Assembly (NCBI GenBank): GCA_016183365.1
Contig: JACPES010000003.1
Coordinates: 345,154-409,153, forward strand
From: Candidatus Collierbacteria bacterium
GTDB taxonomy: Bacteria > Patescibacteriota > Microgenomatia > UBA1400 > JACPES01
Direction of reading: 5' to 3'
Length of the DNA stretch: 64,000 bases
The position numbers and the translations under genes were made by a program. Each line of letters opens with the position of its first letter. The first letter of the stretch is position 1. Shown one piece after another: positions 26,492-64,000 of this stretch. The notes under the pieces were generated by a model. The model did no database searches and was not told the origin of the DNA. It saw only the letters and a list, made by a program, of their open reading frames with translations.

Positions 26492-26492
26492 A

Positions 26493-42883: not shown

Positions 42884-44494
42884 GTGAAGGCGATATCCTA
42901 CGGACGCCAGAGTATTGACAGAAAAGACATTGAATCAATTGTCGAAGTTCTCCGCAGTGATTTTTTGACTCAAGGGCCGATGGTGGAAAAATTTGAGCAA
43001 AGCGTGGCTCGTTTTTGTGGAGCCAAATACGCGGTGGCGGTCAATTCCGGCACCGCGGCGTTGCACGCGGCTATGTTTGCTATCGGTTTGAAACCCGGGG
43101 ATGAAGTAATTACCACGCCGCTGTCGTTTGCGGCTACTGCCAATTGCATTTTATATTTTGGAGCTACTCCGGTATTAGCTGATGTAGAGTATGAAACTGG
43201 ATTGCTTGATCCGGTTGAAGTGGAAAAGAAAATTACTAAGAAAACAAAAGCGATTATTACGGTTGATTATTCCGGTCATCCTTCATATTATCAAGAGTTA
43301 AAAGCTATTGCCAAAAGACATCATCTTATATTGGTATCCGACGCCGCTCATTCATTTGGCGCGCAATATCAGGGTGAATCGATTGGCGCTCAAGCGGATA
43401 TCACCACATTTTCATTTCATCCGGTCAAGATTATCACGACGGGAGAAGGCGGGATGGTAGTCACCAACAATAGAACATTCTACGAGCGGGCATTTTTGTT
43501 TCGGACTCATGGAATTACAAAAGATCCTAACAAATTTATATTTAAAGAACATCAGCAAAAACCTTGGTACTATGAAATGCAGGAACTCGGATTTAATTAT
43601 CGGCTTACTGACTTCCAGTGCGCGCTGGGAATATCTCAACTGGCACGGGTACATAAATTTATTGACAAGAGACGTTCGATCGCGGCGTTTTATACTAAAG
43701 CTTTTAATGGTGATCGTCGATTTAAAGTTTTTAGAGAGCAGCCAGACTGTCAAAGCAGTTGGCATTTTTACCCGTTGCGGATCGTTGGTTCTAAATTGAA
43801 TAAAATAGATTTATTTCATTTCTTACGGAAAAATGGAATTTACCCCCAAGTCCATTACATTCCGATTCACCTCCAGCCGTACTACCGGAAAAGATTTGGA
43901 TATAAACATGAGAGTTTTCCCAAAGCAGAACAGTTTTATCAAGAAGAGATCAGTCTTCCCATCTTCTATGATTTAACAAAGATTCAAATGGAAAAAGTGG
44001 TTCGGACACTATCGCGATTCTTTTTAAATAAACCTTCAAAGAATGAAATTCAAGTTCGCCGTGTTCGAGCCCCAGACCGAGAGGCAATTCTTGGATTAAG
44101 AAATGACGATAGCGTCCGGGTGAATTTTCGCAATATCGAGAAGGTGAGTTTGTCGAAGCATATCAGTTGGTTCAAACAGCAAATGAGTTCTGGTGAAATG
44201 AGAAAACGTTTCTTAGTCGCGGTTGAGAGTGGTCAGGTGATCGGATACATCAGGTATGATCTTATAGTTAAAGATCAATCCTTCCATGTTTCTATCGCTG
44301 TTCAAAGGAAATATCGCCATCAAGGGGTTGGTAGCAAACTTCTCAAGGCGTCGTTACCGCTCATTGTCCGTAAAGGAAAACCAATCATCGCAGAAGTGAA
44401 AAAAAGCAACATTCCATCAGCGCAATTTTTCACCGAACACGGTTTTGTCCCATATAAACAGATAGCCGATTATCTATCATTAATTTATCAATGA
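42884..44494 (+). CDS. PseC-like (UDP-4-amino-4,6-dideoxy-hexose) aminotransferase fused to C-terminal GNAT N-acetyltransferase (PseH-like) domain
   Basis: N-term ISYGRQSIDRKDIESIVEVLRSDFLTQGPMVEKFEQSVARFCGAKYAVAVNSGTAALH (PseC-type signature); C-term ~150 aa with GNAT motif QRKYRHQGVGSKLL; GTG start. Confidence 0.65.
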   Translation: MKAISYGRQSIDRKDIESIVEVLRSDFLTQGPMVEKFEQSVARFCGAKYAVAVNSGTAALHAAMFAIGLKPGDEVITTPLSFAATANCILYFGATPVLADVEYETGLLDPVEVEKKITKKTKAIITVDYSGHPSYYQELKAIAKRHHLILVSDAAHSFGAQYQGESIGAQADITTFSFHPVKIITTGEGGMVVTNNRTFYERAFLFRTHGITKDPNKFIFKEHQQKPWYYEMQELGFNYRLTDFQCALGISQLARVHKFIDKRRSIAAFYTKAFNGDRRFKVFREQPDCQSSWHFYPLRIVGSKLNKIDLFHFLRKNGIYPQVHYIPIHLQPYYRKRFGYKHESFPKAEQFYQEEISLPIFYDLTKIQMEKVVRTLSRFFLNKPSKNEIQVRRVRAPDREAILGLRNDDSVRVNFRNIEKVSLSKHISWFKQQMSSGEMRKRFLVAVESGQVIGYIRYDLIVKDQSFHVSIAVQRKYRHQGVGSKLLKASLPLIVRKGKPIIAEVKKSNIPSAQFFTEHGFVPYKQIADYLSLIYQ

Positions 44495-45438
44495 AAAAAA
44501 TCGTGCTCATTTCGGGGGTCGGCGGCTCTCTCTTTCCATACTTTATTGAAAAGTTAGAAAAGAAATATCGTCTGGTGTTAATTGACTCAAATGACGTTGT
44601 CAAACACACATATCCAAACTCCAACATTATTGTCGTTCCTTCAGTCAAGGACCCGCAATATAGAACGGTCATAGATAAACTGATCAGAAATCTTCACGTT
44701 GACTACTATATTCCTTTAATTGATGAAGAGATTCTTCAGGCAATCGAAATTGCCAAAACCCAGCGAAATCTTAAACTTATTGCTCCCAACCAATCATTCG
44801 TTCAATTGTGTCTTGATAAATTTCGTCTCATGAAGAAATTAACACAGCTTCAAATCTCCCAAGTTTTGACATGGAGAGCAGACAGGGGGCCAGCAAGGCT
44901 TTCTTTTCCAGTCTTCCTCAAGCCGATCACTTCGCGCGGCAGTCGAGGGGCGCGACGCATCGATAATATGGAGCAACTCCAAGCTTACTTCTTATTTGAG
45001 TCATATTCCAAGTATGACGTTATGATTCAAGAGTATCTCGAGGGAGAGGAATACACGGTGAGCGTCGCCGTCAATAATCTCAATCATTTAATCGCCATTG
45101 TCCCTAAACAAGTGATTCTCAAGAAGGGGATTACGTTGCATGCCGTTACCAGGAAAAATGAAATTATATCAGCGATATGCCGTGTCATCGTTGACAAACT
45201 GAAACCTTACGGTCCATTCAATGTTCAACTGAAAGTTTGTAAAGACCAAGTGAAAATCTTTGAAGTGAATCCCAGGTTTTCTACAACCTCGGTGCTAACC
45301 TGCGAAGCTGGCGTCAACGAATTTGACTTATGTATGAAACTATATGGGAAAACAAGTATCAAAGAGATAGACTCTTATCAGGAAGGATTATTCCTTTACC
45401 GCCGTTGGGAAAATTGTTTCTATGAGCTTAAACCGTAA
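44491..45438 (+). CDS. ATP-grasp domain ligase
   Basis: FPVFLKP...SRG...IQEYLEGEEYTV...FEVNPRFSTTS ATP-grasp motifs. Confidence 0.6.
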   Translation: MKKIVLISGVGGSLFPYFIEKLEKKYRLVLIDSNDVVKHTYPNSNIIVVPSVKDPQYRTVIDKLIRNLHVDYYIPLIDEEILQAIEIAKTQRNLKLIAPNQSFVQLCLDKFRLMKKLTQLQISQVLTWRADRGPARLSFPVFLKPITSRGSRGARRIDNMEQLQAYFLFESYSKYDVMIQEYLEGEEYTVSVAVNNLNHLIAIVPKQVILKKGITLHAVTRKNEIISAICRVIVDKLKPYGPFNVQLKVCKDQVKIFEVNPRFSTTSVLTCEAGVNEFDLCMKLYGKTSIKEIDSYQEGLFLYRRWENCFYELKP

Positions 45439-46327
45439 AAAAATTCTTCTGGTTGGCGGTACCGGTTACATAGGTACTGCGCTTGCGAAAGAATTGCATG
45501 ATGACTATGCAGTTGTTGTTACCGGAAGAACTATTGGTAACCGGAAGACCGGATTAATGCTCCGCCTTGATTTTTCTAACGAAAAAAGCGTGGAAGAAGT
45601 TCTTTCAAGTGAACGCTTCGATATCATTATTGTTTTAGCCGCGCGCATAGAGATTTCTCACCCCCGCGAATTGGATTTTCAAGATCCTATTTTTCAAGAC
45701 AATGTATGGGGACTCAATCGGTTTTTGCGCCGGGCTTGTTTTTTGCAAAAGCAAGCAAAGCAGATTTTTATTAGTTCGATGACTGTTTATGCTTCCGATC
45801 TCAAAAGTCCGGTTTCGGAAAATGCTCCACTTTATCCGCTTCATCCCTATGGACTATCGAAGTTGATGGGGGAACAAATTTTTAGTTACTACGTTGTTAA
45901 CCACGATCACAGCGGTGTGATTTTTAGACTTCCGGGAATTTTTGGCGGTAACAGAAAAACCGGGTATTTATACCATCTTGTGAACAAGCTTCACACGTCT
46001 CAAGATATCATTCTTGACTCCGCCGGACTTGGATTTTGGGAAAGTTTGCATCTATATGATTTCGTAAACATGTTTGGGGAATTTCTCCGTAATTATTCAT
46101 TTTCTTCAAAACTTGAAGTGTTCAACATGGGTTACGGGGAAGAGACAGATTTCATTAAAACCGCTCATACGCTCAAAATGCTCACCGGATCATCAAGCCG
46201 AATCATTGTCAAACCAAAAGATTATCGAAAATTTTTTATGAGCAACCGGAAGATCGCGCGTTATGTAAATGTAGAGAAATACTCTTATCATCAGGCGTTG
46301 AAACAATTACTTAAGGAACAAAAATGA
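45422..46327 (+). CDS. NAD-dependent epimerase/dehydratase-like SDR
   Basis: KILLVGGTGYIGTALAKEL; YGLSKLMGE (YxxxK). Confidence 0.55.
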   Translation: MSLNRKKILLVGGTGYIGTALAKELHDDYAVVVTGRTIGNRKTGLMLRLDFSNEKSVEEVLSSERFDIIIVLAARIEISHPRELDFQDPIFQDNVWGLNRFLRRACFLQKQAKQIFISSMTVYASDLKSPVSENAPLYPLHPYGLSKLMGEQIFSYYVVNHDHSGVIFRLPGIFGGNRKTGYLYHLVNKLHTSQDIILDSAGLGFWESLHLYDFVNMFGEFLRNYSFSSKLEVFNMGYGEETDFIKTAHTLKMLTGSSSRIIVKPKDYRKFFMSNRKIARYVNVEKYSYHQALKQLLKEQK

Positions 46328-47058
46328 AATTTGTGATTGGAGATATCCATGGAGAGATAACAAAATTGAAACAGCTTGTCAGCCAAATGTCGCGGTATCC
46401 CATTGAAGAGCTTTTCTTCGTTGGTGACTATTTGGATAAGGGGGAAAATTCCAAAGCAACTCTTTTATTTCTGCAAGAAATAGCGACACATTTCCGATGC
46501 ACGTTTCTTCAAGGAGATCACGAGTATGCCTGGCTTCGATTCCTTAAGTGCGGCGAATATGAACAATTCTTATTGCGTTACGGTGGAAAGACAACAATGA
46601 GAGACTTTGGCATTACCGACCTCGAACCAAAGATTGTTGAAAAAAAGCTTTATTTGCCATTTCAACATTTCTTTCAGCGGCTCCGACCCTATGTGGTGCT
46701 AAATGAATTTATTGTCTCCCACTCCGGCATCAATCCGACCTTTGCTACTCGGCCGCGGTGGGAAAGTCTGGGGGAAAAAGAGTTTGTGTTTCGGCGATTT
46801 GACTTCATTGGGTATGATAAGCTGGTGAAAGCGAGAAAGTTTATCTTTGGACATACCGCGTTCGTTTCTCCTTACTACGACGGGTGGAAAATCGGCATTG
46901 ATACTGGTGCTGTTTATCCACGCAGTGGAATCCTGACGGCGTTTGAGATAAACAAAGAGTATTTTCTGGACCATCAAGGATATACTATGAATCTATCCGA
47001 CATTAACTCTTCCGCTTGTCCGATCCTTGTCAATGTGGGAGAACAGAATGATGAATAA
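46324..47058 (+). CDS. PPP-family metallophosphoesterase (Ser/Thr-phosphatase / ApaH-like)
   Basis: GDIHG ... GDYLDKG ... GDHE signature triad of PPP phosphoesterases. Confidence 0.6.
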   Translation: MKFVIGDIHGEITKLKQLVSQMSRYPIEELFFVGDYLDKGENSKATLLFLQEIATHFRCTFLQGDHEYAWLRFLKCGEYEQFLLRYGGKTTMRDFGITDLEPKIVEKKLYLPFQHFFQRLRPYVVLNEFIVSHSGINPTFATRPRWESLGEKEFVFRRFDFIGYDKLVKARKFIFGHTAFVSPYYDGWKIGIDTGAVYPRSGILTAFEINKEYFLDHQGYTMNLSDINSSACPILVNVGEQNDE

Positions 47059-47740
47059 GATAGCTAGAGAAACTACTTTGATTGTTGCTGCCCATCCTGA
47101 TGATGAAATACTTGGAATGGGTGGAACGCTATTGAAATTAGCCCAATCCGGCCAGAATAATCTTCATCTTCTCTTTCTGTCTTTTGGAGAAGCCTCGCGA
47201 GGTAAAAAAGAAACAAATGAAGATTTAAGAAAACAGCAAGCTATAGCGGTTAGTAAAAAAATCGGCGCCCGTCTTCATCTAGAAGAAAACTTTCCCGACA
47301 ATGCCTTTGATTCCGTTCCGCTTCTTAAAATCATTCAGAAAGTGGAATATTACCTTAACATCATTAAACCCACGATTATTTATACCCACCATGGACAGGA
47401 TTTGAATGTGGATCATCGCCTGACTTTCCAGGCGGTATTTACTGCGGTCAGACCTTCGCGATATCCCTATCTCAAGAAACTTTATACGTTTGAGATTCTT
47501 TCATCTACTGAATGGCAAGTTAAAACATCCTCGACAGTTTTTCTTCCCAACACCTATGTTGATATTGAGCGATACCTTGAACCCAAAATCGAGTTGTTAA
47601 AAGAATACCAAAGAGAACTTTCGCCTTACCCTTTCCCCAGATCTGTGCAAGGGGTTAAAGCGTTGGCACAGTACCGAGGAATGGAAAGCGGATTAAAATA
47701 CGCCGAAGCATTTCAGTTGATTCGAGAGGTGCGGCCATGA
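47027..47740 (+). CDS. PIG-L/LmbE-family N-acetyl-sugar deacetylase
   Basis: LIVAAHPDDEILGMGGTL (AHPDDE motif); H..D.. downstream. Confidence 0.65.
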   Translation: MSMWENRMMNKIARETTLIVAAHPDDEILGMGGTLLKLAQSGQNNLHLLFLSFGEASRGKKETNEDLRKQQAIAVSKKIGARLHLEENFPDNAFDSVPLLKIIQKVEYYLNIIKPTIIYTHHGQDLNVDHRLTFQAVFTAVRPSRYPYLKKLYTFEILSSTEWQVKTSSTVFLPNTYVDIERYLEPKIELLKEYQRELSPYPFPRSVQGVKALAQYRGMESGLKYAEAFQLIREVRP

Positions 47741-48261
47741 AAGTTATTTTCTATGGGGGGCAAACCGCTGGCCTTGTAGTTTTCCTGGGTCTTGCGGCTC
47801 AACCGGATGTTCATATTGTCAGGGTAATTCCCCAAGATGACATTCTTGCCGGAGCGGCGAAAATTTTGCATTATAAAACAGATGATCTGGATAAATTGGA
47901 CGATATCTTGTATATCAAGAAACTCTCGAAAACCGCAGACGCAATGATTTGCTGTCATGGTCGCAAAATTCTAAAGAAAGAATTGACAGACTCCATACGC
48001 TGTATTAATTTTCATCCTTGTCTTTACAAATATAAAGGGGCTTTTCCTATTAAGAAACTTTTGGAAAATAAGGATACTAAAGCCTCTGTTGGTGCTCACT
48101 TCATGACCGAACGTGTTGATAAAGGGCCCCTTATTAAAGAAATTTTCATTAATCTTGATCAAAAAAAGATGAACAGCGAATGTGAAGTATACAACCAACT
48201 CTACCCAGTTTATTTAGAAGTATTGCAGGAGGCATTATTAGTATTACGGAAAGTTTTATGA
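47737..48261 (+). CDS. Formyltransferase N-terminal-domain protein (sugar N-formyltransferase-like)
   Basis: CINFHPCLYKYKG matching N-x-H...SLLP.YRG formyltransferase active-site region; 174 aa. Confidence 0.55.
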   Translation: MKVIFYGGQTAGLVVFLGLAAQPDVHIVRVIPQDDILAGAAKILHYKTDDLDKLDDILYIKKLSKTADAMICCHGRKILKKELTDSIRCINFHPCLYKYKGAFPIKKLLENKDTKASVGAHFMTERVDKGPLIKEIFINLDQKKMNSECEVYNQLYPVYLEVLQEALLVLRKVL

Positions 48262-49415
48262 AGTATTGTCGTCGCTGTGTTTTCCCAGATACAAAACCCG
48301 ACCTTTTTTTTGATAAAGAGGGAATTTGCGACGCTTGCCGCTCGAGCGAAAAAAAAGATCAGGGTATTGATTGGGAGGCCAGAAAACAAGAACTTGGAGC
48401 ATTGTTGGAGAAATACCGTTCCAAGGACGGATCAAATTACGACTGTATTATTCCCGTTAGCGGCGGTAAGGATAGCCATTATCAAACATATGTGGTCACT
48501 AAACTATTTCATCTTCGGCCGCTATGCGTTTGTTTTGAGCCGACGCTACCAACTGCGCTGGGAAGAAAAAATTTGCGTAATCTAAACCGCCTCGGCGTTG
48601 ATCTTTTACATATTAAGAGAGATCCTGTTGTTTATAAAAAATTGGTTATCGAGGGTCTTCGGCGCGTTGGGGATAATGAATGGCCTAACCATGTGGGAAT
48701 TTTTACTACGCCGGTTCAAATTGCGGTAAAATTTAATATTCCGCTTTTAATCTGGGGGGAAAATCCTCAAATAGAATATGGAGGTCCTGCTCGCGGACGG
48801 GTCGCCAAGATTCTAGACCGGAGATGGTTGGAGGAATTTGGGGGGTTGTTGGGGAACCGAGTGGAAGACATGAGAGAGAGTCTGGGGCTTAGCCGGCAAG
48901 AGATGCTGCCATATTTTTATCCCTCCGATCAGGCGCTGAAAAATGTTGGCGTTACCGGAGTATTTTTGGGATATTTTTTAAAATGGAATACCAGAGCTCA
49001 AATAGAATTGATGAAGAAATCAGGCTTTCAAACTCACCCCACTCATGTTGAAGGCACATACACCGATTTTGAGAATCTGGATTGTGACTCGATGACGGTC
49101 CACGATTATCTAAAGTTTGTCAAATACGGCTTTGGCCGGGGAACGGACCACGCCTGTCTGGACATTCGTTTAGGGCTTATCGCCAGAAAAAAAGGTGTTC
49201 GTTTAGTGGAGGAGTATGACGGGAAGTTGCCGCAAAAATCCATGAATCGGTTGCTTGATTATTTGGGATGGTCAAGGGAAGAATTTTTTAAAACGATTGA
49301 CCCTTTTGTAAATAAGATTGTTTTTGCTTTTAACTCAAATGGCCGCCCGAAACGCGCTTCTGATGGAAATCTCATTATGAAGAAAGAAATTATTGAAGCC
49401 AGAAGACGCCCATGA
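48258..49415 (+). CDS. N-acetyl sugar amidotransferase (WbuX/PseA-type PP-loop enzyme)
   Basis: CRRCVFPDTKPDLFFDKEGICDACRS zinc-ribbon then PP-loop YDCIIPVSGGKDSHY; followed by HisH/HisF-like pair as in wbuXYZ. Confidence 0.65.
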   Translation: MKYCRRCVFPDTKPDLFFDKEGICDACRSSEKKDQGIDWEARKQELGALLEKYRSKDGSNYDCIIPVSGGKDSHYQTYVVTKLFHLRPLCVCFEPTLPTALGRKNLRNLNRLGVDLLHIKRDPVVYKKLVIEGLRRVGDNEWPNHVGIFTTPVQIAVKFNIPLLIWGENPQIEYGGPARGRVAKILDRRWLEEFGGLLGNRVEDMRESLGLSRQEMLPYFYPSDQALKNVGVTGVFLGYFLKWNTRAQIELMKKSGFQTHPTHVEGTYTDFENLDCDSMTVHDYLKFVKYGFGRGTDHACLDIRLGLIARKKGVRLVEEYDGKLPQKSMNRLLDYLGWSREEFFKTIDPFVNKIVFAFNSNGRPKRASDGNLIMKKEIIEARRRP

Positions 49416-50026
49416 AACCTCGCGTCGCGATCGTGGATTACGAAATGGGAAATGTTTTTTCCCTTAAGAACGCCCTGGAATACTGCGGGGCGTTAGCGTT
49501 AGTAACTCGAAAACCCGATGAACTTCGTAGGGCCACCCACCTGGTTCTTCCCGGTGATGGGGCCTTCAGGACCGGAATGGAAAATCTTAAAAGATTTGGC
49601 CTGATTCCGATATTGGAAGAAGAGGTCCTTAAAAAGAAAAGACCGTTTTTAGGAATTTGCATCGGAATGCAGCTTTTGGCTCAAGAAGGAACCGAAGACG
49701 GCATCTGGGAAGGATTGGGGTGGGTAAAAGGGAAAATCGTAAAGCTGAAAGGACATTCGCTGCGTTTGCCCCACGTCGGTTGGGACGATATTACTTACAA
49801 AGAGAACTGCTATTTATTTTCGGGAATTCCACAACAGGCAGATTTTTACTTCATTCACAGCTTTTGTTTCGTCTGCAAAGAACGGCAAGACGTTATTGCT
49901 TCCTGCCGTTATGGGCAAAACTTCGCGGCGGCTATAGAAAAACAAAATATTTTTGGAACCCAGTTTCATCCAGAAAAGAGTCAGACTTACGGACTTAAAT
50001 TACTGAAAAATTTTATCTCATGTTAA
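49412..50026 (+). CDS. HisH-like glutamine amidotransferase subunit (WbuY-like)
   Basis: VAIVDYEMGNVFSLKNAL...LVLPGDGAF...GICIGMQLL...FHPEKS class I GATase triad. Confidence 0.75.
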   Translation: MKPRVAIVDYEMGNVFSLKNALEYCGALALVTRKPDELRRATHLVLPGDGAFRTGMENLKRFGLIPILEEEVLKKKRPFLGICIGMQLLAQEGTEDGIWEGLGWVKGKIVKLKGHSLRLPHVGWDDITYKENCYLFSGIPQQADFYFIHSFCFVCKERQDVIASCRYGQNFAAAIEKQNIFGTQFHPEKSQTYGLKLLKNFISC

Positions 50027-50781
50027 AAACTCGTGTCATTCCCGTTTTGTTGTATCAACAAGGGCGATTGGTGAAAAGCATCCGTTTCAAAGAGCATCGG
50101 AATTTAGGAAATCCTATTCAAACCGTAAGAATTTATAACGCCAGAAACGTCGATGAATTAGTTATTCTTGATATAACCAAAACGCCGGCAGGAAAGGAAC
50201 CCGAGTATAAAATGATAAAGGAAATGGCCAGGGAATGCTTTATGCCGCTGGCCGTCGGGGGAGGAGTGCGATCCCTATCGATTGCCAGGAAACTTTTTTT
50301 ATCCGGCGCGGATAAGATATGTCTAAATTCAGCTGCGATTGAAAATTCCGGACTGATAGGAAAAATTTCCAGAATGTTCGGAAGCCAAAGCGTCATTGTC
50401 TCCATTGATGCGAAAAAAAGAAACAATCACCGGTATGAGGTTATTACTCGATGTGGAACCCTACCGACAGGACTGGATTCGGTGGAATGGGCGAAAGAAG
50501 CAGAGCGTCGAGGGGCCGGGGAAATTTTCTTAACCTCGATTGACTGCGAAGGGGCGATGCAGGGATTCGATCTTGAATTGATCCGAAATATCTCTACAGC
50601 CGTAACCATTCCGGTGATTGCCCATGGGGGAGCCGGAACCCCGTTGGATTGTGTCGAAGCAATTGGGGCGGGCGCGTCTGCGATAGCCGCGGCCAGCATT
50701 TTTCACTACACTCACGCGACTCCTCAAGTGGTTAAACAGGAGCTTAAAGCTGCCGGATATCCGACAAGAAATAAATTATGA
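50020..50781 (+). CDS. HisF-like cyclase/synthase subunit (WbuZ-like)
   Basis: [18 protein letters not shown]...DELVILDIT...(beta/alpha)8 HisF pattern, IAHGGAGT. Confidence 0.75.
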
Positions 50782-52664: not shown

Positions 52665-52669
52665 CAAGA

Positions 52670-54508: not shown

Positions 54509-54538
54509 TGGTATCTGTCCAATGCTATAGTATAAACC

Positions 54539-57466: not shown

Positions 57467-58770
57467 AGAAAATATTGGCAATTAATGGGGGAAAGAAAGT
57501 CCGGCGGAAGAAATTTCCTTCATACAATACCATCGGCAAAGAGGAAAAACGGGCAGTCCTGAAAGTTCTCAATAGCGGCGTGCTTTCACAGTACCTTGGG
57601 GTCTGGGGGAAAGATTTTTACGGAGGAGAAGAAGTACGAACGCTGGAAAAAGAATGGGCGGCCCATTTCCATGTCAAACACGCGATTGCCGTCAACTCTG
57701 CGACCTCCGGCCTCTTCGCCGCGACCGGCGCGATCGGAATCGGTCCCGGAGACGAAGTCATTGTTTCGCCATACACCATGTCCGCATCGGTGATGCCGCC
57801 CTTGATCTACGGAGCGGTTCCCGTGTTTGCGGATATCGAGCAAGAGTATTTCTGTTTAGATCCGGCATCAGTTGAACAACGAATCACAGAACGGACAAAA
57901 GCCATTATCGTGGTGGATTTATTCGGCCAACCGTATGACGTTGAACGAATCAATAAAATTGCTAAGAAGCACAATCTTATTCTTATAGAAGACGCTTCTC
58001 AAGCGCCCGGAGCGGCATATCAAGGAAAATTCGCCGGTACATTGGGAGACATCGGGATATTTTCTCTGAATTATCACAAACATATCCATACCGGCGAAGG
58101 CGGAATGGTCGTAACGGATAACGATGAGCTGGCGGATAGGGTCCGATTAATTCGAAATCACGCGGAAAGTATTGTCGAGGCAAAAGGAGTAAAGAATTTG
58201 ACGAACATGGTTGGATTTAACTTTCGGATGACGGAAATTGAGGCGGCGATTGCCCGATGCCAGCTGAAAAAATTGAAATCTCTTCTGAAATCTCGTATTA
58301 ACGATATTGAGTACCTGACGAAAAGACTAGAAACAATTGAAGGATTGCGTCCGCCCCGCGTCCGCCCCGGATGCACCCATTCATTTTATGTCCATCCCAT
58401 TTTGTACGACCAACGTGTCACCGGTGTCCCCCGCGACAGATTCATTGATGCCGTCAAAGCCGAGCTGACGCCAACGCGAGGGCGAGAATCATGGGGGCCG
58501 TTAATAAGCTGTGGCTATGTAAAACCCCTATATCTTCTTCCGTTATTCCAAAAACGAATCGCGATTGGAGCCAACGGGTATCCATTTACAGCACCTCTTT
58601 ATTATGGCAACGTGACATATAAGAAAGGAATTTGCCCTGTGGTAGAGCAATTGTATGAGTATTCACTCTTTTATCATGATCTGGCCAAACCGCCGGTCAC
58701 AAAGAAAGATCTGGATGACATTGCCAAAGCATTTGTGAAAGTCAGCCGTCACGTTAAGGAACTACGATGA
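57463..58770 (+). CDS. DegT/DnrJ/EryC1/StrS-family PLP-dependent sugar aminotransferase
   Basis: AIAVNSATSGLFAATGAIGIGPGDEVIVSPYT...FSLNYHKHIHTGEGGMVVT. Confidence 0.75.
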   Translation: MKKILAINGGKKVRRKKFPSYNTIGKEEKRAVLKVLNSGVLSQYLGVWGKDFYGGEEVRTLEKEWAAHFHVKHAIAVNSATSGLFAATGAIGIGPGDEVIVSPYTMSASVMPPLIYGAVPVFADIEQEYFCLDPASVEQRITERTKAIIVVDLFGQPYDVERINKIAKKHNLILIEDASQAPGAAYQGKFAGTLGDIGIFSLNYHKHIHTGEGGMVVTDNDELADRVRLIRNHAESIVEAKGVKNLTNMVGFNFRMTEIEAAIARCQLKKLKSLLKSRINDIEYLTKRLETIEGLRPPRVRPGCTHSFYVHPILYDQRVTGVPRDRFIDAVKAELTPTRGRESWGPLISCGYVKPLYLLPLFQKRIAIGANGYPFTAPLYYGNVTYKKGICPVVEQLYEYSLFYHDLAKPPVTKKDLDDIAKAFVKVSRHVKELR

Positions 58771-58841
58771 ATAATCAAATCATGATCGGAAAACGCGTGT
58801 GTCTCCGCGTTCTTAAAGAACGCGACGTGGATGGTCCGTAA
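58767..58841 (+). pseudogene. Possible remnant of a GNAT acetyltransferase N-terminus (24-codon ORF MNNQIMIGKRVCLRVLKERDVDGP), overlapping the upstream stop
   Basis: Peptide resembles N-terminal beta1 of RimL-like GNATs (compare ISLRPLAINDV of 61019 gene); ends in stop; contains 9-bp-stem hairpin cgcgttctt/aagaacgcg. Confidence 0.25.
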
Positions 58842-58937
58842 AATGCCTAGTTAATACCCTCTGGGCGCAGTCGAAATTAACAGAAAGGGATTTAAAAGAT
58901 ATCGTGGTGGCGGTGGAGAAAGTTGCCAAAAATCTGA

Positions 58938-60041
58938 CTAAGTTGAAAACAAGTGTTTCCAAGCAAAAGCTTCTCCTCTGGAGATTGATTGAGTCAATTT
59001 TTTCCCGATAATCATTTCAGTAAATTGAGGGGTAATTGATCCTTTTGGCGTCGGGCGCAAGGCTTCGACCATTGATTTGGTTAAGGCGGTGCCTTTCTTT
59101 AAATCTCGGGCAGCGCGCAAGCAGCGGCGCTGAATGATTGACGAGTCGGTTTCGGCGGCGACAACCTGTTTTTGTCCTGATCCAAGGATGGTTTTTACTA
59201 AATTGCCGTATTTTGTCATTAAAGCGAACGCTTGAGGTGTCATCGAAAATGGGGCGTCCGGAGTTTCGTCGTCGTTTCTTAGACACAAATGTTTTTCGAT
59301 GACACAGGCGCCGCGGGTGACGGCGATCAATGGGACTACTACGCCGTGGAAGGGATTATCTGCGTCGTAAGTATGGTCGGAATAACCATAAGCCACGTCG
59401 AAAGCTTTGCCCATGGTGACCATGGCTTCGACTCCGGCTTGTTCAATCGGAGAGAGAGCGTAATTTGTGATGCATTGAAGAAGAATAATTTGGTCGTTGC
59501 CGGCTTTTCTTAAAGTGTTAATTGCTAATTCTACGGTTGCCAAGTCGGAGGCGCCGGAAGAGATAATAATCGGTTTTCTTTTTTTGGCGATATATGTTAA
59601 AAGTTCAATGTAATCAATATCACCGGAGCCGATTTTGTATGCATTAACGTCGACTTTTTCGAGCAGATCAACAGATTCTTTATCGTACGGCGTACTCATG
59701 AATTCAATACCGACTTTTTTACAGTAATTGGCTAGCTTTTGATGCCAGTCAAATTTTAGTGACGCATCCTCATAAACTTCATAGACGCTTTTTTTCCATT
59801 TGGCCTGATGGGTGATCTTCATTGATTTAAATCCGACGTCGGAAACGATTTTGGGTGCTTGGAAAGTTTGGAATTTGGCAACATCGGCGCCGGCTTGTTT
59901 GGCGGCATCAATCAGTTTGAAAGCTTTACGAATATCTGGTTTTTGTTCTGGAGTCGGCATCCAGTTGGCGGATATATCCGCAATCCAATAAGGTTTTTTG
60001 CCATCCCCCACCCACTGCTTTCCGATTTTGAGACGTTTCAT
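58938..60041 (-). CDS. Nonulosonic acid synthase (NeuB/PseI/LegI family) with C-terminal SAF domain
   Basis: YWIADISANW...AGADVAKFQTFQ N-terminal NeuB signature; C-terminal SAF-like KKGTALTKSMVEALRP. Confidence 0.8.
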   Translation of the reverse strand: MKRLKIGKQWVGDGKKPYWIADISANWMPTPEQKPDIRKAFKLIDAAKQAGADVAKFQTFQAPKIVSDVGFKSMKITHQAKWKKSVYEVYEDASLKFDWHQKLANYCKKVGIEFMSTPYDKESVDLLEKVDVNAYKIGSGDIDYIELLTYIAKKRKPIIISSGASDLATVELAINTLRKAGNDQIILLQCITNYALSPIEQAGVEAMVTMGKAFDVAYGYSDHTYDADNPFHGVVVPLIAVTRGACVIEKHLCLRNDDETPDAPFSMTPQAFALMTKYGNLVKTILGSGQKQVVAAETDSSIIQRRCLRAARDLKKGTALTKSMVEALRPTPKGSITPQFTEMIIGKKLTQSISRGEAFAWKHLFST

Positions 60042-60961
60042 TACAGACGAAATTTATCACTTTTGATTGATTGATGCAAGTGCGTAACGCCTTGATTTAC
60101 CATTGGAAGAGAAATTTTGATTTTTCTTGCGAAAACTAAAGAATTAAGATAAGTTTTTTGCGGGCGAGGGATAGATAAAACTAGACCGCTTTTTACCGGT
60201 AGCACCAGATTTGAATCATAGCCAAATTCTTTCGCTAGCAATTTGGCGAAGCGGTATTTGCTGATTCGGTTTTTGGCGTTCAGGTTATACAAACCGTAAA
60301 GATTTTCGCGTAAAGCTTCAATCGTTAATTTAACTATGTCTTCGATGAATAGAGGAGCAAAAACCACGTCGGTAAAACTGGTGACTTTCCGGCCGGCGGC
60401 CAAAGTCCTTAAAATCCATTCCACCAGAGGATATGGTTTTCTACCGCGGATGCCGATGATGTTTGTCCGCAAAACCAGAGCGTTTGGATCGATTTTTAGA
60501 ACTAACTGTTCGCCTTTTAGTTTCGATTTGGCATAAAGGTTTAACGGATGAACTTTGTCAATTTCTGTATATCCGTCAACCGGCGGATTTTTGCCGTCAA
60601 ACACCGCGTCGGTGGAATAATGAATCAGTTTCTTACCGTGTTTTGCCGTCCATTCAGCTAGAATCCCTGGAAATTCCGCATTTATTTTATAGGCCAAATC
60701 AGGATTTTCTTCGCAGTCTTCGACGATTGTCATGGCGGCGCAGTTGACGATGATTTCGGGATTGATTTCTGAAAGTAGAATTTGAAGGCTTAGAGGATCG
60801 GTAGCATCAAACATGACAGAGCAGATATTTTTTTCTCTGGATTTTTTCGGTTTGGAATGATAAGCGAAGAATATCGGTGAAAAAAATTTCTCCAACAAAC
60901 TTCTTTTAGCGACGAAAGCACTACCGAGCATTCCGTTGGCGCCGAGAATTAAAATTGACAT
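60041..60961 (-). CDS. RmlD-like NAD(P)-dependent sugar reductase/epimerase (SDR)
   Basis: MSILILGANGMLGSAF; YAKSKLKGE (YxxxK); 306 aa. Confidence 0.55.
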   Translation of the reverse strand: MSILILGANGMLGSAFVAKRSLLEKFFSPIFFAYHSKPKKSREKNICSVMFDATDPLSLQILLSEINPEIIVNCAAMTIVEDCEENPDLAYKINAEFPGILAEWTAKHGKKLIHYSTDAVFDGKNPPVDGYTEIDKVHPLNLYAKSKLKGEQLVLKIDPNALVLRTNIIGIRGRKPYPLVEWILRTLAAGRKVTSFTDVVFAPLFIEDIVKLTIEALRENLYGLYNLNAKNRISKYRFAKLLAKEFGYDSNLVLPVKSGLVLSIPRPQKTYLNSLVFARKIKISLPMVNQGVTHLHQSIKSDKFRL

Positions 60962-61018
60962 TCTTCTCCATAAGGTATCATATCTCGAGTATATCAGTTA
61001 ACTGGTAAAATCAGATAG

Positions 61019-61582
61019 ATGAAAATAAAAGACTCTAAGGTTTTTTTACCAGGCCAGCGCATTTCACTGCGGCCGCTGGCGATCAATGACGTTTCTCTTC
61101 GGTATCATCGATGGCTCAATGATCCGGAGGTCAATCAATATAACGCTCACGCGATTTTTCCCTATTCAATTGAAGAGTTAAAAGAATATGTAAAACAAGC
61201 CAGTAGTGATCGATCGAAAATCGTTCTGGCGATTGTCGACAACAAATCCGGGAAACACATTGGTAATCTTTCCCTTCAGAATATTGACTGGGTGGCGCGC
61301 AGCGCCGAATTTGCCATTATCATTGGAGATAGAAATTTCTGGGAAAAGGGTGTAGGTTTGGAGGCGGGAAAGTTGATCGTTGATTACGCATTTACCCGAT
61401 TAAATCTTAACAGGATTTATTGCGGAACTTCCAGCCAAAATATGGGGATGCAGAAATTAGCCGGTAAACTGGGAATGAAGCCCGAAGGTTGTCGTCGGCA
61501 GGCGATGTTTAAAGACGGGAAATTCGTTGACATTATTGAGTATGGTATCTTAAACATCGAATATGAAAAGCAAAAAGCTTAG
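61019..61582 (+). CDS. GNAT family N-acetyltransferase (RimL-like; PseH candidate)
   Basis: ISLRPLAINDVSLRYHRWLNDPEV N-term; motif A region WEKGVGLEAGKLIVDYAF. Confidence 0.7.
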   Translation: MKIKDSKVFLPGQRISLRPLAINDVSLRYHRWLNDPEVNQYNAHAIFPYSIEELKEYVKQASSDRSKIVLAIVDNKSGKHIGNLSLQNIDWVARSAEFAIIIGDRNFWEKGVGLEAGKLIVDYAFTRLNLNRIYCGTSSQNMGMQKLAGKLGMKPEGCRRQAMFKDGKFVDIIEYGILNIEYEKQKA

Positions 61583-62678
61583 GTCATCAGGCCAGCCATT
61601 TCCTCAACTAAAATACTGCACCCGTTGCTGCATGCCGGAAACTACCGAAGGAATTGAATTTGACGACATGGGCATCTGCAAATCCTGTCAGTCCTCGGAG
61701 CAAAAAATTCATATTGATTGGGTAAAGAGGGAAAAAGAATTGCGAAAAATTTTGATGTATTACAAAAAGCGGAGCGGGAGTAACTACGACTGCATCGTGC
61801 CAATTAGCGGCGGAAAAGACAGCACGTTCCAGCTCCACGTTATCTGCAAAATCTATGGGATGAAACCTCTGGCAGTGACGTTTTCTCATAATTGGTATTC
61901 TCCGGTAGGGAAGCAGAACTTAGATAATGCTCTTGAGAAATTCAATGTTGACCACATCATGTTTACTCCCAACCGGGCTTTAGTGAATAAATTAGCGCGG
62001 AAATCATTGATGATGATCGGCGACTCCTGTTGGCATTGCCACGCGGGGGTGGGCGCTTTTCCTCTTCAGGTGGCGATGAAATTCAAGATACCGCTGATGG
62101 TCTGGGGGGAATCCATCGCCGAGTCGTCAGGCCGGGCGACGCACTATGAACCCGGACACCGTTATGACCGCGAGTACTTTATCAAAGTCTCCGCCAAGGT
62201 GTATCCGGAGCAAATGGTGGGGAATGGCATAACCAAGAAAGATGTCTTCCCTTTCAAATTCCCGACTTCATCGGAAATCAAAAACGTCGGAGTAACTGGC
62301 ATTCATCTAGGAGATTACATTTTTTGGGATGACGAACGACAAACGGAGTTTGTCAGACGAGAGTACGGTTGGAAAGAGGATACGATCGAAGGGACATATA
62401 AACGCTACAAGAGCGCCGAGTGCATCATGCCGGGCGTCCACGACTACACCAAATATTTGAAACGCGGATACGGCCGGGCGACGGATCATGCCAGCCAAGA
62501 CGTTCGAGCCGGCCTTCTGACCCGTGAAGAAGCTTTTAAACTTGTGAAGAAAATCGATCCAAAAAAGCCAAAAATTTTAAAGTACTACCTTAAGATTACC
62601 GGCCTGTCGGAAAAAGAATTCTACGATGTGATGCGGAAACACCGAGTAGGAAAAGCAAAACATCTATCGTTACCATGA
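61563..62678 (+). CDS. Second N-acetyl sugar amidotransferase (WbuX/PseA-type PP-loop enzyme)
   Basis: CTRCCMPETTEGIEFDDMGICKSCQS then YDCIVPISGGKDSTFQ; paralog of 48258 gene. Confidence 0.65.
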   Translation: MKSKKLRSSGQPFPQLKYCTRCCMPETTEGIEFDDMGICKSCQSSEQKIHIDWVKREKELRKILMYYKKRSGSNYDCIVPISGGKDSTFQLHVICKIYGMKPLAVTFSHNWYSPVGKQNLDNALEKFNVDHIMFTPNRALVNKLARKSLMMIGDSCWHCHAGVGAFPLQVAMKFKIPLMVWGESIAESSGRATHYEPGHRYDREYFIKVSAKVYPEQMVGNGITKKDVFPFKFPTSSEIKNVGVTGIHLGDYIFWDDERQTEFVRREYGWKEDTIEGTYKRYKSAECIMPGVHDYTKYLKRGYGRATDHASQDVRAGLLTREEAFKLVKKIDPKKPKILKYYLKITGLSEKEFYDVMRKHRVGKAKHLSLP

Positions 62679-64000
62679 ACGATCTTTTTCTGTTGGGAGC
62701 CTGGGATGCTGTCCGCAAGATTCAGGCGAACAATATCAGCGCGATTGAATTCGTGACGTCCTGCCTTGACCAGATTGGGAGGACGGAGCCAAACATACAT
62801 GCCTGGGTCCATCTCGATCGAAAATATGCATTGGCGCAAGCCGCCGAGATTGATAAAAAAATCGCCGCTGGCCAGAAAGTCGGAATCCTTGCCGGAGTTC
62901 CGGTGGGAGTAAAAGATATTTTCAATACGGTTGATTTCCCAACGGAGATGGGAAGCCCGATCTGGAAAAACTTCACCCCGGGGAATGACGCCCGGGTTGT
63001 TTCATATTTACGATGGGAAGATGCGGTGATACCGGGGAAAACCGTGACGGCTGAATTCGCGGTTCATACTCCGGGTCCGACCCATAACCCTCATCGGCAT
63101 GGATACATGACCGGAACATCGTCAAGCGGCTCCGCAGCCGCAGTGGCTTCGTTTATGGTCCCGTTTGCCTTGGGAACCCAGACGGCCGGATCAACCATCC
63201 GGCCGGCCAGTTACTGCGGCGTCTACGGGATGAAACCGTCGTTCGGGCTCCTGCCCCGGACCGGAATGCTTAAAACAACCGATTCGCTTGATACCGTCGG
63301 TTTTTTCTCCAGATCCATCGACGATCTTCGATTGCTTCTTGACGTTCTCCGCGTCAAAGGCCGTAATTTTCCTTATATCCATCGCGCAGTCGATCGGCAA
63401 CAACCGGGGAGAAAAAATAAACACAAGTGGAAAGTGGGAGTAGTAACGTCAAGCCTGTGGGTGTGGGATAAGGCGGAAGTCTACGCGCGAGATTCACTGA
63501 AGCGGTTCGCGTCAGCACTCTCAAAGCTCAAAAGCGTGGAGATACAGGAAGTAAAACTTCCAGCCGAATTTAATCGCGCCCACCAAATTCATGGAGTAAT
63601 CTATGATAAGACGCTCTCCTATTATTTCAAAAATGAATTCAAAAAAAAGACACTCATCAGTCCGGTGATGTATGAAATCATTGAAAGGGGACAACGGATC
63701 ACGCTGGACGACTATAAAAAAGCGCTCGACCGGCAAAGTCTTTTATCCCGGAAGTTCGCTCGACTGATGGATAATTTCGACGTCCTTTTGACGCTTTCGA
63801 CCGGGGGAGAAGCGCTCAAGGGACTCCAATCGGTCGATCGTCTGGACTCGTGTCTTATCTGGACGCTTTGCGGCGCTCCAACCATTAATCTTCCGGTGTT
63901 TATCGGACCAAATAAATTGCCGTTTGGAGCGCAATTGGTGGGAAGACGGTACGGTGATTACGGAGTCTTGTTATTCGCCTCTTTTCTCATTACGAATGGA
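62675..64000 (+). CDS. Amidase-signature family enzyme (GatA-like), C-terminus beyond window
   Basis: GVPVGVKD ... GTSSSGSAAAVASF (amidase signature GGSS.GS-like) ; ATG 62675 overlapping upstream stop; open to window end so absent from ORF track. Confidence 0.65.
   Translation, partial: MNDLFLLGAWDAVRKIQANNISAIEFVTSCLDQIGRTEPNIHAWVHLDRKYALAQAAEIDKKIAAGQKVGILAGVPVGVKDIFNTVDFPTEMGSPIWKNFTPGNDARVVSYLRWEDAVIPGKTVTAEFAVHTPGPTHNPHRHGYMTGTSSSGSAAAVASFMVPFALGTQTAGSTIRPASYCGVYGMKPSFGLLPRTGMLKTTDSLDTVGFFSRSIDDLRLLLDVLRVKGRNFPYIHRAVDRQQPGRKNKHKWKVGVVTSSLWVWDKAEVYARDSLKRFASALSKLKSVEIQEVKLPAEFNRAHQIHGVIYDKTLSYYFKNEFKKKTLISPVMYEIIERGQRITLDDYKKALDRQSLLSRKFARLMDNFDVLLTLSTGGEALKGLQSVDRLDSCLIWTLCGAPTINLPVFIGPNKLPFGAQLVGRRYGDYGVLLFASFLITNG

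Follow-up and report, generated by a model that had tools for sequence, protein, structure and literature searches.

Which nonulosonic acid (NulO), or which NulOs, can the surface-glycan locus of a Candidatus Collierbacteria genome make, and from which parts has this locus been put together? The genes in question occupy positions 42884-64000 of a stretch of 64,000 nucleotides that we call the window (GenBank assembly GCA_016183365.1, contig JACPES010000003.1, positions 345,154 to 409,153 of the forward strand). An earlier note, made by a model from the letters alone, had read these genes as one pathway to a 5,7-diamino NulO of the pseudaminic or legionaminic acid type (Pse or Leg), with non-standard substituents on its amino groups. 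The kind of locus was rightly recognised there, namely one of the Pse type whose product would bear acetamidino groups and exchanged N-acyl groups, but the architecture is different: there is more than one pathway, and the synthase inside the window is not PseI. The explanation that we consider best, with moderate confidence, is a Pse core joined by two cassettes, A and B, and by an inserted module, which together would give two related NulOs; these would carry acetamidino and re-acylated groups and perhaps additional amino groups. The region forms the NulO half of a larger locus for a cell-surface glycan, which spans at least 72 kb in a genome of the candidate phyla radiation (CPR) and is a mosaic of recurrent gene modules that occur across many phyla.

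By open reading frame (ORF) listing together with Pfam and NCBIfam scans, the region holds 20 closely packed genes; NCBI protein numbers MBI2309894 to MBI2309912 agree with the same 19 gene calls. Neighbouring genes overlap by a few bases and form operon-like runs. The first run on the plus strand (42884-52664) leads from a PseC-GNAT fusion to a GT-B protein of 628 amino acids (aa) and is followed by the gene of a 612-aa GT-B protein on the minus strand. The second plus-strand run (54539-58770) consists of CTP_transf_3, Gfo/Idh/MocA, 403-aa GT-B and 435-aa DegT genes. Then comes a pair on the minus strand (58938-60961, NeuB with SAF and an RmlD-type SDR), and after it, again on the plus strand, a GNAT, the second amidotransferase and an amidase. 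Our domain searches recovered every domain that the earlier note had named, each where it had been placed; left out there were a PPP-type metallophosphoesterase (46324-47058) and three large GT-B proteins. The genome had also been called candidate-phylum-like, and indeed the NCBI protein names are those of Candidatus Collierbacteria (Patescibacteria/Microgenomates). A chimeric assembly was ruled out by the gene order, which several independent Logan assemblies share with the NCBI metagenome-assembled genome (MAG).

The core of the locus is represented in the window by two genes:

42884-44494, plus strand: PseC aminotransferase (TIGR03588) with a C-terminal GNAT at residues ~390-525, a candidate for the PseH function
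54539-55312, plus strand: CTP_transf_3 cytidylyltransferase (Pfam CTP_transf_3, 90 bits), head of cassette B

The fusion of a PseC-like aminotransferase to a GNAT, proposed from the letters, is real. Its aminotransferase part scores 484.2 bits with TIGR03588 and passes the equivalog threshold (cut-off 423.5), and its GNAT part is 41-42% identical to the N-terminal GNAT of the GNAT-ATP-grasp fusions found in relatives. The other core genes lie just outside the window. The Logan contig L007 shares 12,438 nucleotides with the window, without a difference, and continues past the window end with, in this order, the rest of the amidase gene, Wzm, Wzt, PseI, a 445-aa GT-B protein, a Pse-associated methylase and PseB. 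A true PseI is found 1.7 kb past the window end (408.1 bits, cut-off 340.25), the methylase reaches 147 bits with TIGR03587 (cut-off 112), and a true PseB stands at about 4.8 kb (TIGR03589, 438.4 bits, cut-off 407.75). The 4,6-dehydratase that had been listed as missing is thus present on the same contig. A hydrolysing 2-epimerase of the NeuC/LegG type was not found in the window, and a Pse-type pathway needs none; the only Epimerase_2 protein of the window is a non-hydrolysing WecB (13609-14733) with 325 bits, against 86 bits for the NeuC model. With the NeuB model TIGR03569 the two synthases give 273 and 282 bits, and the cut-off is 400.

These results establish the core pathway as the 5,7-diamino Pse type and not as Leg or Neu. 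Of the two types that had been left open, Pse stands with PseB, PseC and PseI all above their cut-offs, and Leg does not. A Leg or Neu pathway was ruled out, as there is no NeuC/LegG and the LegB and LegC models score far below cut-off. We also looked for a grouping of synthase and cytidylyltransferase with Kdo or N-acetylneuraminic acid (NeuNAc) enzymes together with the lack of any PseC/LegC-like aminotransferase, a combination that the earlier note had set against its own reading, and this is not what the locus has. In the proposed core, UDP-GlcNAc would be converted to CMP-Pse5Ac7Ac by PseB, PseC and a GNAT, and then by PseI and the cytidylyltransferase. The Pse pathway of C. jejuni and H. 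pylori (PseB, PseC, PseH, PseG, PseI, PseF, PseA) offers the closest comparison: PseB, PseC and PseI are orthologs above the equivalog cut-offs, and a CTP_transf_3 enzyme, GNATs and PseA/WbuX-type amidotransferases occur here too. In contrast to that pathway, our locus has no PseG homolog, its PseH and PseF candidates stay below cut-off, PseC is fused to a GNAT, and there are in addition a synthase of another clade, two accessory cassettes and an amidase.

If the window synthase is not PseI, then we can ask: What does it make, and how did it come to the locus? It is encoded with a reductase on the minus strand:

58938-60041, minus strand: second nonulosonate synthase, NeuB with SAF (Pfam NeuB, 255 bits)
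60041-60961, minus strand: RmlD-type (4-keto) reductase coupled to the second synthase (RmlD_sub_bind 179 bits; TIGR01214 177 bits, cut-off 224)

The NeuB and SAF domains had been correctly seen, but this is not a Pse synthase. It scores 273 bits with both TIGR03569 and TIGR03586 (272.7 with the PseI model), below both cut-offs, and falls in a clade of its own apart from PseI, whose members likewise fail both cut-offs. It has only six close relatives, after which hundreds of homologs follow at 45-49% identity. An RmlD-type SDR of 299-306 aa lies just upstream of this type of synthase in eight loci of our collection (L085, L086, L087, L088, L091, L119, L124 and L153), and a PseB-type dehydratase was near the reductase-synthase pair in all 8 independent loci examined. 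No aminotransferase was detected in the examined region of L085 and L088. In L091 a single operon holds PseB, a cytidylyltransferase, the reductase, the synthase, a GT2 protein, Gfo, DegT, GNAT, a 299-aa protein, the amidotransferase and the amidase. The automatic Logan call gives our RmlD-type protein 257 aa, against an ORF of 306 aa that includes an N-terminal Rossmann segment; the longer start is likely, because the Pfam match begins at residue 1.

The reductase would divert the 4-keto product of PseB to a sugar of the 6-deoxy-L-AltNAc type, and the second synthase would condense that sugar with phosphoenolpyruvate to a 5-amino-3,5,9-trideoxy ("fusaminic-like") NulO. Two synthases are present, and therefore the locus probably makes two sugars rather than one heavily decorated sugar. 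The products proposed for this module have structural counterparts: F. nucleatum 25586 has 6-deoxy-L-AltNAc and a 5-acetimidoylamino-3,5,9-trideoxy-NulO (Vinogradov 2017, cited in PMC7371886). These sugars fit the expected products of reductase, synthase and amidotransferase, a match by structure only. In L087, L088 and L091 a small GT2 gene (213-225 aa) stands between reductase and synthase, and its product resembles polyprenyl-phosphate sugar synthases of the PpgS/AglJ/ArnC kind. The reduced 6-deoxy-hexosamine might accordingly be attached to a lipid carrier as well, for use by the many GT-C enzymes of the window.

The way in which the pair arrived has left a trace. The closest relative, L092, is 84-89% identical to the window in DegT, amidotransferase 2 and amidase; it lacks the reductase-synthase pair, and its GNAT gene comes immediately after DegT. 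Nucleotide synteny with L092 ends at 58840 and starts again at 61255, inside the present GNAT gene. Directly after DegT a remnant is found:

58767-58841, plus strand: 24-codon remnant of the 5' end of the ancestral cassette B GNAT, MNNQIMIGKRVCLRVLKERDVDGP*, identical to the start of the L092 GNAT in 21 of 24 positions

Identity to the L092 GNAT is 41% over residues 1-79 of the present GNAT and 59% over residues 80-187, so the gene at 61019-61582 is probably chimeric, with a new 5' part and an old 3' part. From the break in synteny and the remnant it follows that the reductase-synthase pair and the new 5' part of GNAT are an insertion of about 2.4 kb (58841-61254). Around the inserted module we detected neither convincing repeats at its flanks nor convincing signatures of a mobile element.

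The genes on both sides of this insertion belong to cassette B, whose members are the cytidylyltransferase, Gfo/Idh/MocA, a GT-B protein, the long DegT, GNAT, amidotransferase 2 and the amidase, and which is conserved across phyla. Apart from the cytidylyltransferase listed above and the amidotransferase and amidase listed below, they are:

55296-56258, plus strand: Gfo/Idh/MocA oxidoreductase (Pfam GFO_IDH_MocA)
56255-57466, plus strand: 403-aa GT-B protein, of one family with the 628-aa and 612-aa proteins (homologs in L057, L066, L067, L089, L090 and L091)
57463-58770, plus strand: long DegT-family aminotransferase, 435 aa (Pfam DegT, 290 bits)
61019-61582, plus strand: the GNAT (Pfam Acetyltransf_3, 92 bits), probably chimeric as described

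The Gfo/Idh/MocA protein and this second DegT are no spare core enzymes; the comparison of loci places them in the conserved cassette. A CTP_transf_3 gene adjoins the Gfo and DegT genes in many loci as a cassette member, and in most cassette B loci a GNAT homolog lies directly upstream of the WbuX2-type amidotransferase gene. Homologs of GNAT, the 403-aa protein, Gfo/Idh/MocA and the long DegT (50% identical) stand beside the amidotransferase-amidase pair in L089, L090 and L091, and in metagenomic loci the long DegT, Gfo and GNAT genes usually adjoin such pairs. The oxidoreductase resembles only inositol dehydrogenases, and those weakly, and is conserved beside the long DegT. The latter is below the PseC and LegC cut-offs and 41-89% identical to its cassette B homologs. 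Its solved relatives are led by 8gyh, an unannotated 439-aa DegT protein for which we found no paper, and include inosose/inositol aminotransferases, perosamine synthase and KdnA; KdnA and the inosose aminotransferases reach 175-210 bits, against 118 bits for WbpE, and WbpE and PseC are more distant. For the ATP-grasp protein, phosphoesterase, cytidylyltransferase and oxidoreductase, solved-structure searches returned only unannotated structural-genomics entries or generic relatives.

We propose that the oxidoreductase would oxidise a free hydroxyl of the finished (CMP-)sugar, most likely at C8, and that DegT would then transaminate it; GNAT would acetylate the new amine, which would become the substrate of amidotransferase 2. 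Late-stage amination at C8 is favoured because of the affinities of DegT, the linkage to CTP_transf_3, the precedent of EpaA/EpaB and the sugar of Flexibacter maritimus. The oxidase of the Kdo8N pathway of Shewanella is an iron-type alcohol dehydrogenase, not Gfo/Idh/MocA. In that pathway the C8 hydroxyl of a finished ulosonic acid is oxidised by KdnB and transaminated by KdnA (5k8b), the enzyme that reaches 175 bits with our long DegT; it differs in using an eight-carbon sugar, with no later acetylation or amidination. In Acinetobacter, late-stage C8 redox on Pse by the CTP_transf_3-fused pair EpaA/EpaB is established (PMC12053666). The coupling of a CTP_transf_3 function to an oxidoreductase that acts on the finished nonulosonate, seen in A. 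baumannii EpaA/EpaB and AciE, is the logic proposed for the start of cassette B. However, the A. baumannii families are an aldo-keto reductase and a classical SDR where we find Gfo/Idh/MocA, and the outcome there is epimerisation and not amination, with no aminotransferase, GNAT or amidotransferase involved. An 8-amino Pse-like NulO, 5,7,8-triamino-pentadeoxy-manno-NulO, occurs in Flexibacter maritimus (PMC3210612), and it fits the expected product of cassette B acting on Pse, again by structure only.

Acetamidino groups would come from two amidotransferases, which lie with their partners in different parts of the region:

48258-49415, plus strand: N-acetyl sugar amidotransferase 1 (WbuX/NASAT; TIGR03573 375.8 bits, cut-off 203)
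49412-50026, plus strand: HisH-type glutaminase (WbuY-like; TIGR01855 230.8 bits; Pfam GATase), ammonia donor for amidotransferase 1
50020-50781, plus strand: HisF-like protein of the WbuZ/AglZ type (Pfam His_biosynth; TIGR03572 294.5 bits, cut-off 299.7; NF038364 AglZ/HisF2 278 bits)
61563-62678, plus strand: N-acetyl sugar amidotransferase 2 (WbuX2 type; TIGR03573 368.9 bits, cut-off 203)
62675-64000, plus strand: amidase-signature enzyme, 454 aa in full, cut by the window end (Pfam Amidase, PF01425, 263 bits)

That there are two WbuX-type amidotransferases, one of them with its own HisH/HisF, was already claimed from the letters, and the scores leave the claim intact. N-acetyl sugar amidotransferases (NASAT) are defined by an SGGxDS PP-loop and a tetracysteine zinc motif CxxCxn[GN]xCxxC (PMC10607449). 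Both proteins have the PP-loop as SGGKDS, at residues 68 and 82, and the CxxC...GxCxxC cysteine motifs, starting at residues 4 and 19. The two are only 36% identical to each other. As in WbuXYZ, WbpG and the Legionella NASAT (8WEX, PMC10607449), both copies thus combine a TIGR03573 score above cut-off with the same PP-loop and tetracysteine motif; the canonical HisH/HisF partners of WbuXYZ (WbuY/WbuZ) are shared by copy 1 only. Unlike WbuXYZ, copy 2 lacks HisH/HisF and is coupled to the amidase-signature enzyme, both here and in the metagenomic loci described below.

The amidase has its catalytic triad intact (K80 in GVKD, S150 in TSSSGS, S173 in AGSTIR), and the start of its gene overlaps the stop codon of amidotransferase 2 (ATGA). 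Many homologs at 57-64% identity occur in unrelated phyla. In L089, L090 (Melainabacteria MAG) and L091 (Ca. Methylobacter oryzae) the amidase comes directly after a gene 65-67% identical to amidotransferase 2. A metagenome scan with the amidase profile gave 80 loci, and the 63 with at least 1.2 kb of upstream sequence were used to count pairings. In 56 of these 63 a WbuX2-type gene ends at most 300 nucleotides upstream of the amidase on the same strand. The upstream genes are 55-89% identical to copy 2 and 31-40% to copy 1, and no match to HisH or HisF was found in the amidase-WbuX2 metagenomic loci examined. On the basis of this gene linkage the amidase is probably the ammonia donor of amidotransferase 2, in place of HisH/HisF. 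It had been taken for an independent N-modifying enzyme, and what the counts describe is a conserved partner of amidotransferase 2. Both PP-loop enzymes would turn N-acetyl into acetamidino groups, copy 1 with ammonia from HisH/HisF and copy 2 with ammonia from the amidase. In the literature that we searched, no description of an amidotransferase-amidase partnership was found. The G+C content of the amidase gene is 50%, against 41.7% for the whole window (62675-64000 and L007 11113-12477); this value and the homologs in distant phyla are in keeping with a horizontal origin of the amidotransferase-amidase pair.

Cassette A, in the first plus-strand run, comprises a GNAT, an ATP-grasp protein, an SDR, a PPP-type phosphoesterase and PIG-L, and in addition a minimal formyltransferase-like protein:

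44491-45438, plus strand: ATP-grasp ligase (Pfam ATPgrasp_Ter, ATP-grasp_3)
45422-46327, plus strand: SDR of the NAD-dependent epimerase/reductase type (Pfam Epimerase, 103 bits)
46324-47058, plus strand: PPP/ApaH-type metallophosphoesterase (Pfam Metallophos)
47027-47740, plus strand: PIG-L/LmbE-type N-deacetylase (Pfam PIG-L, 83.6 bits; metal motif AHPDDE)
47737-48261, plus strand: minimal formyltransferase-like protein of 174 aa (Formyl_trans_N, 42 bits, partial)

The ATP-grasp protein has 575 homologs at E<=1e-20, with 45-58% identity across phyla, some of them with an N-terminal GNAT fusion. A scan of GTDB species genomes with the ATP-grasp profile, followed by tblastn comparison of the window proteins, gave 71 loci from sources that include Francisella, Campylobacterales, Desulfospira, Deferribacteres, many Bacteroidota, Bacillaceae, Methanoregula and Peribacteria. 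Of these 71 loci, 61 hold PIG-L, 56 a synthase, 44 the SDR, 40 PseB, 40 PseC, 38 the phosphoesterase and 37 a cytidylyltransferase. Where present, the SDR gene lies immediately 3' of the ATP-grasp gene (44/71) and the phosphoesterase gene immediately after the SDR (38/71), and the commonest order is synthase, ATP-grasp, SDR, phosphoesterase, PIG-L. The set is also seen in a Desulfospira flagellin locus and in other contexts. In most loci the synthase just upstream of ATP-grasp represents a third NeuB-family clade, neither of the PseI type nor of the type in our window, and these third-clade synthases (L011/L018 and the L014-L084 genome loci) are also below both curated cut-offs. In some loci, the Desulfospira flagellin locus among them, the number of different synthases rises to two or three. 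In 19 of the 71 loci there are formyltransferase-like domains, which are often fused to PseG. Our 174-aa protein matches the profile at positions 78-158 of 181 only, and keeps Asn91, His93 and Asp138. The best solved relatives of the phosphoesterase are PP2A/PP1, lambda phosphatase and ApaH.

In this cassette PIG-L would strip one N-acetyl group, and the freed amine would be re-acylated in one of two ways: the ATP-grasp enzyme may ligate a phosphorylated acid from which the PPP-type phosphatase would remove the phosphate, or the 174-aa protein may formylate the amine. The same logic, a ligase and then a phosphatase, is followed in the amidation of the Campylobacter capsule. The genes for deacetylase, ATP-grasp ligase and formyltransferase-like protein are present as first described, and the exchange of N-acyl groups remains plausible; the enzyme set is not unique to this locus. 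Both the ATP-grasp/SDR/phosphoesterase/PIG-L set and the Gfo/DegT/GNAT/WbuX/amidase set recur widely, and cassettes A and B occur in Bacteroidota, Campylobacterales, Desulfobacterota, Bacillaceae, Melainabacteria, Methylobacter, Peribacteria and methanogens. Literature searches found no published account of an ATP-grasp/PIG-L/formyltransferase cassette in Pse loci; the only matches for ATP-grasp with Pse concern the unrelated sfm cluster of Shewanella.

A number of observations weigh against the explanation that we prefer. All its substrate assignments derive from the families of the proteins, from the genes around them and from glycan structures that are known. With the PseH model TIGR03585, the PseC-fused GNAT scores 36 bits and the free GNAT at 61019 scores 49 bits, and the cut-off is 93. 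The cytidylyltransferase at 54539-55312 is the only one in 72 kb, for two synthases; it gives 26.8 bits with the PseF model TIGR03584 (cut-off 205.7), is also under the KdsB cut-off, and has as its best solved relative 6oew, an unnamed cytidylyltransferase (147 bits). No PseG homolog was found in the 72 kb, where there was no Glyco_tran_28_C match and tblastn of two PseG sequences on the window and L007 came back empty; 55 of the 71 related loci do have one. The hydrolysis of the UDP-sugar is thus left without an assigned gene here. What ties cassette A to the PseC branch here is its operon position, and in most other loci the cassette goes with the third synthase clade. A single-sequence AlphaFold2 model of the 403-aa protein was unusable (pLDDT 34.8). 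Gfo, DegT, GNAT and amidotransferase together are the classic recipe for acetamidino 2,3-diamino hexoses, and a UDP-hexose is a possible substrate of cassette B. The amidase has malonamidase E2 as its closest solved relative and GatA after it, and its substrate could be the glycan itself, on which it would act as a hydrolase.

The last two observations lead to other readings of cassette B. It might make a separate nucleotide hexose, with UDP-GlcNAc oxidised at C3, transaminated, acetylated and turned into a 3-acetamidino sugar of the GlcNAc3NAm/ManNAc3NAm type, as in P. aeruginosa O5, Bordetella and the Methanococcus N-glycan, and this hexose would be the neighbour sugar of the NulO. The Gfo/Idh/MocA, DegT, acetyltransferase and WbuX families are the same as those of WbpB/WbpE/WbpD/WbpG and AglXYZ, the oxidoreductase weakly matches the NCBIfam model of the archaeal UDP-GlcNAc 3-dehydrogenase, and there is a weak Epimerase_2 match on the 403-aa protein. 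That protein, however, groups with TagF/BFO_1060-like GT-B proteins and not with WecB-type epimerases (95% vs 13%), many loci include a CTP_transf_3 gene in the cassette, and cassette B lies essentially always beside NulO synthase genes. Because the long DegT is nearer to KdnA and the inosose aminotransferases than to WbpE, and because the 403-aa protein is not an epimerase, we rate the hexose route lower and regard it as unlikely. It is doubtful, too, that the amidase is a hydrolase working on the sugar, by removal of an N-acyl group or conversion of a carboxamide, in which case its linkage to amidotransferase 2 would reflect consecutive steps and not a two-subunit enzyme. The rank of malonamidase E2 ahead of GatA would suit such a role, and AtzE-type and generic amidase models score on our protein much like the GatA model. 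Yet the amidase adjoins WbuX2-type genes near-obligately, often overlapping or closely spaced and with no HisH/HisF, and the other type of amidotransferase in the window has HisH/HisF instead. PP-loop amidotransferases in general have recruited varied ammonia-releasing partners, which also speaks for the amidase as a donor.

The inserted module can likewise be understood in other ways. The organism might have a single pathway, in which PseC, NeuB and the cytidylyltransferase of the window make one 5,7-diamino Pse-type NulO, everything else decorates it, and the synthase outside is redundant. PseC in the window is indeed a true PseC, there is one cytidylyltransferase only, and the window synthase scores about alike on the PseI and NeuB models. 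But a synthase that passes the PseI cut-off stands 1.7 kb past the window end, near PseB and the Pse-associated methylase; the clade of the window synthase is always paired with an RmlD-type reductase, sometimes with no aminotransferase in the locus; and this synthase came by an insertion that is not present in L092. We hold a single pathway to be very unlikely. A recent acquisition that is silent or redundant, in an organism that makes only Pse derivatives, would explain why the pair is absent from L092, why it interrupts the operon on the opposite strand and why it has no dedicated second cytidylyltransferase. Against this, both genes are intact full-length ORFs with complete domains, the disrupted GNAT has been repaired as a full-length chimeric gene, and the arrangement is the same in at least five independent assemblies, so that silence of the pair seems quite unlikely to us.

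Returning to the Pse core with its two cassettes and inserted module, we can take its parts together. A tentative joint reading, which we think possible but do not expect with any confidence, is that the locus contains an amidase-fed subclass of NASAT, a cassette B that adds an amino group to the finished sugar (probably at C8, to give 5,7,8-triamino or 5,8-diamino sugars) and has it acetylated and amidinated, and a reductase-coupled synthase that is the missing route to fusaminic-type sugars, all conserved across phyla. If this is true, a CPR bacterium with a contig of ~0.6 Mb holds all three, together with a deacetylation and re-acylation cassette, in one locus of at least 72 kb. None of the cassettes of the locus appears to have been biochemically characterised, and our literature searches found no relevant paper linking Patescibacteria or CPR with pseudaminic acid. 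NulOs carry N-substituents of many kinds (acetamidino, formyl, glyceroyl, hydroxybutyryl, aminoacyl and extra amino groups). These influence recognition by the immune system, the adsorption of phages and the behaviour of biofilms, and reviews call knowledge of the modifying enzymes scarce (PMC5378307, PMC6388019). The window can serve as a compact index of candidate modules: deacetylase/ATP-grasp/phosphoesterase, oxidoreductase/aminotransferase/acetyltransferase, amidotransferase-amidase and reductase-synthase. Each module is conserved across distant phyla and is therefore testable in vitro with available intermediates of the Pse pathway. In this way the locus offers candidate enzymes for sugar decorations whose genetics remain unknown; for Fusobacterium nucleatum 25586 and Flexibacter maritimus, glycan structures without known genes have been described, and the likeness to our locus is one of structure only. 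That a CPR member spends a large part of a very small genome on an elaborate surface glycan also bears on the contacts of epibiotic cells with hosts and phages.

How would the finished sugars be transferred and exported? Besides the 403-aa member of cassette B, two larger GT-B proteins are encoded in the window:

50778-52664, plus strand: 628-aa GT-B protein, TagF/BFO_1060/LIC12162-like (weak Glyphos_transf, BFO_1060_trans and surf_polysacc matches), candidate CMP-nonulosonate transferase or polymerase
52670-54508, minus strand: paralogous 612-aa GT-B protein (BFO_1060_trans 61 bits; hhalign 94.3%; HP motif)

The profile of the 403-aa family matches the 628-aa, 612-aa and 445-aa proteins with 94-96% probability (95.8% for the 628-aa protein), compared with 12.9% for WecB. 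The 403-aa protein was therefore ruled out, so far as its sequence can tell, as a hydrolysing 2-epimerase or PseG, its Epimerase_2 match being sub-threshold and its GT-B likeness standing at 95% against 13% for WecB. All four paralogs, three of them in the window, keep the sialyltransferase-like HP motif. The D/E-D/E-G motif is absent from the three in the window, and the single DEG of the 445-aa protein is N-terminal and falls outside the C-terminal domain that was aligned. Matches to the BFO_1060 model are weak (37-61 bits, cut-off 200), and there are also weak matches to LIC12162, TagF and polysialyltransferase models. The BFO_1060 family has been implicated by knock-out as the transferase of Pse/Leg derivatives in T. 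forsythia (GtfS, Tanf_01245; PMC5420450). The locus of that species, with its Pse5Am7Gra and Leg derivatives, is likewise of Pse type with N-acetimidoyl and non-acetyl N-acyl groups, and the likeness of our GT-B proteins to GtfS consists of the weak BFO_1060 match and the kept HP motif (PMC5420450). The differences are the low scores (at most 61 bits vs 200) and the number of paralogs, four here, two of them of ~620 aa. T. forsythia is also reported to have no homolog of PseA, and the enzymes behind its modifications have not been identified (PMC5378307, PMC6388019). In our locus the GT-B proteins would transfer or polymerise the CMP-sugars, and the ABC transporter would then export the product. 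BFO_1060-like GT-B proteins together with TagGH-like Wzm/Wzt suggest, as far as such family likeness can, a NulO-containing polymer or glycan that is built in the cytoplasm and exported.

Further genes surround the region on both sides. The glycan locus takes at least 72 kb of a contig of 588 kb (588,265 bp). On L007, PseB is followed by a PMT_2 protein, a DUF5989 gene and a carbamoyltransferase gene, which is partial there (19485-20398, with the DUF5989 gene, adjoining the PMT_2 protein); the carbamoyltransferase suggests O-carbamoylation as a further decoration of the glycan. Upstream, positions 1-42800 of the window are a glycan locus as well, with at least 9 transferases of the GT1, GT2 and GT4 families and about 8 methyltransferase domains. 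A third DegT is encoded at 26427-27593, SDRs like 4,6-dehydratases or epimerases at 6899-7831 and 25517-26491, and GT-C/PMT_2-like proteins at 5707-6882, 11208-12509 and 39681-41291. The 635-aa product of 17468-19375 fuses an enolase-superfamily domain (MR_MLE_C, of racemase/cycloisomerase type) to a SAM methyltransferase, an unusual pairing in a glycan locus, and the 570-aa product of 34569-36281 has two SAM-methyltransferase domains in tandem. Three large proteins gave no family matches: those of 32816-34579 (587 aa), 37722-39647 on the minus strand (641 aa) and 41288-42832 (514 aa). Two of them, the 587-aa and the 641-aa protein, are distantly paralogous, with 24% identity over ~640 residues. 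The 514-aa protein, encoded directly 5' of PseC, resembles a multi-pass membrane protein and is possibly a polymerase, a ligase or a GT-C enzyme.

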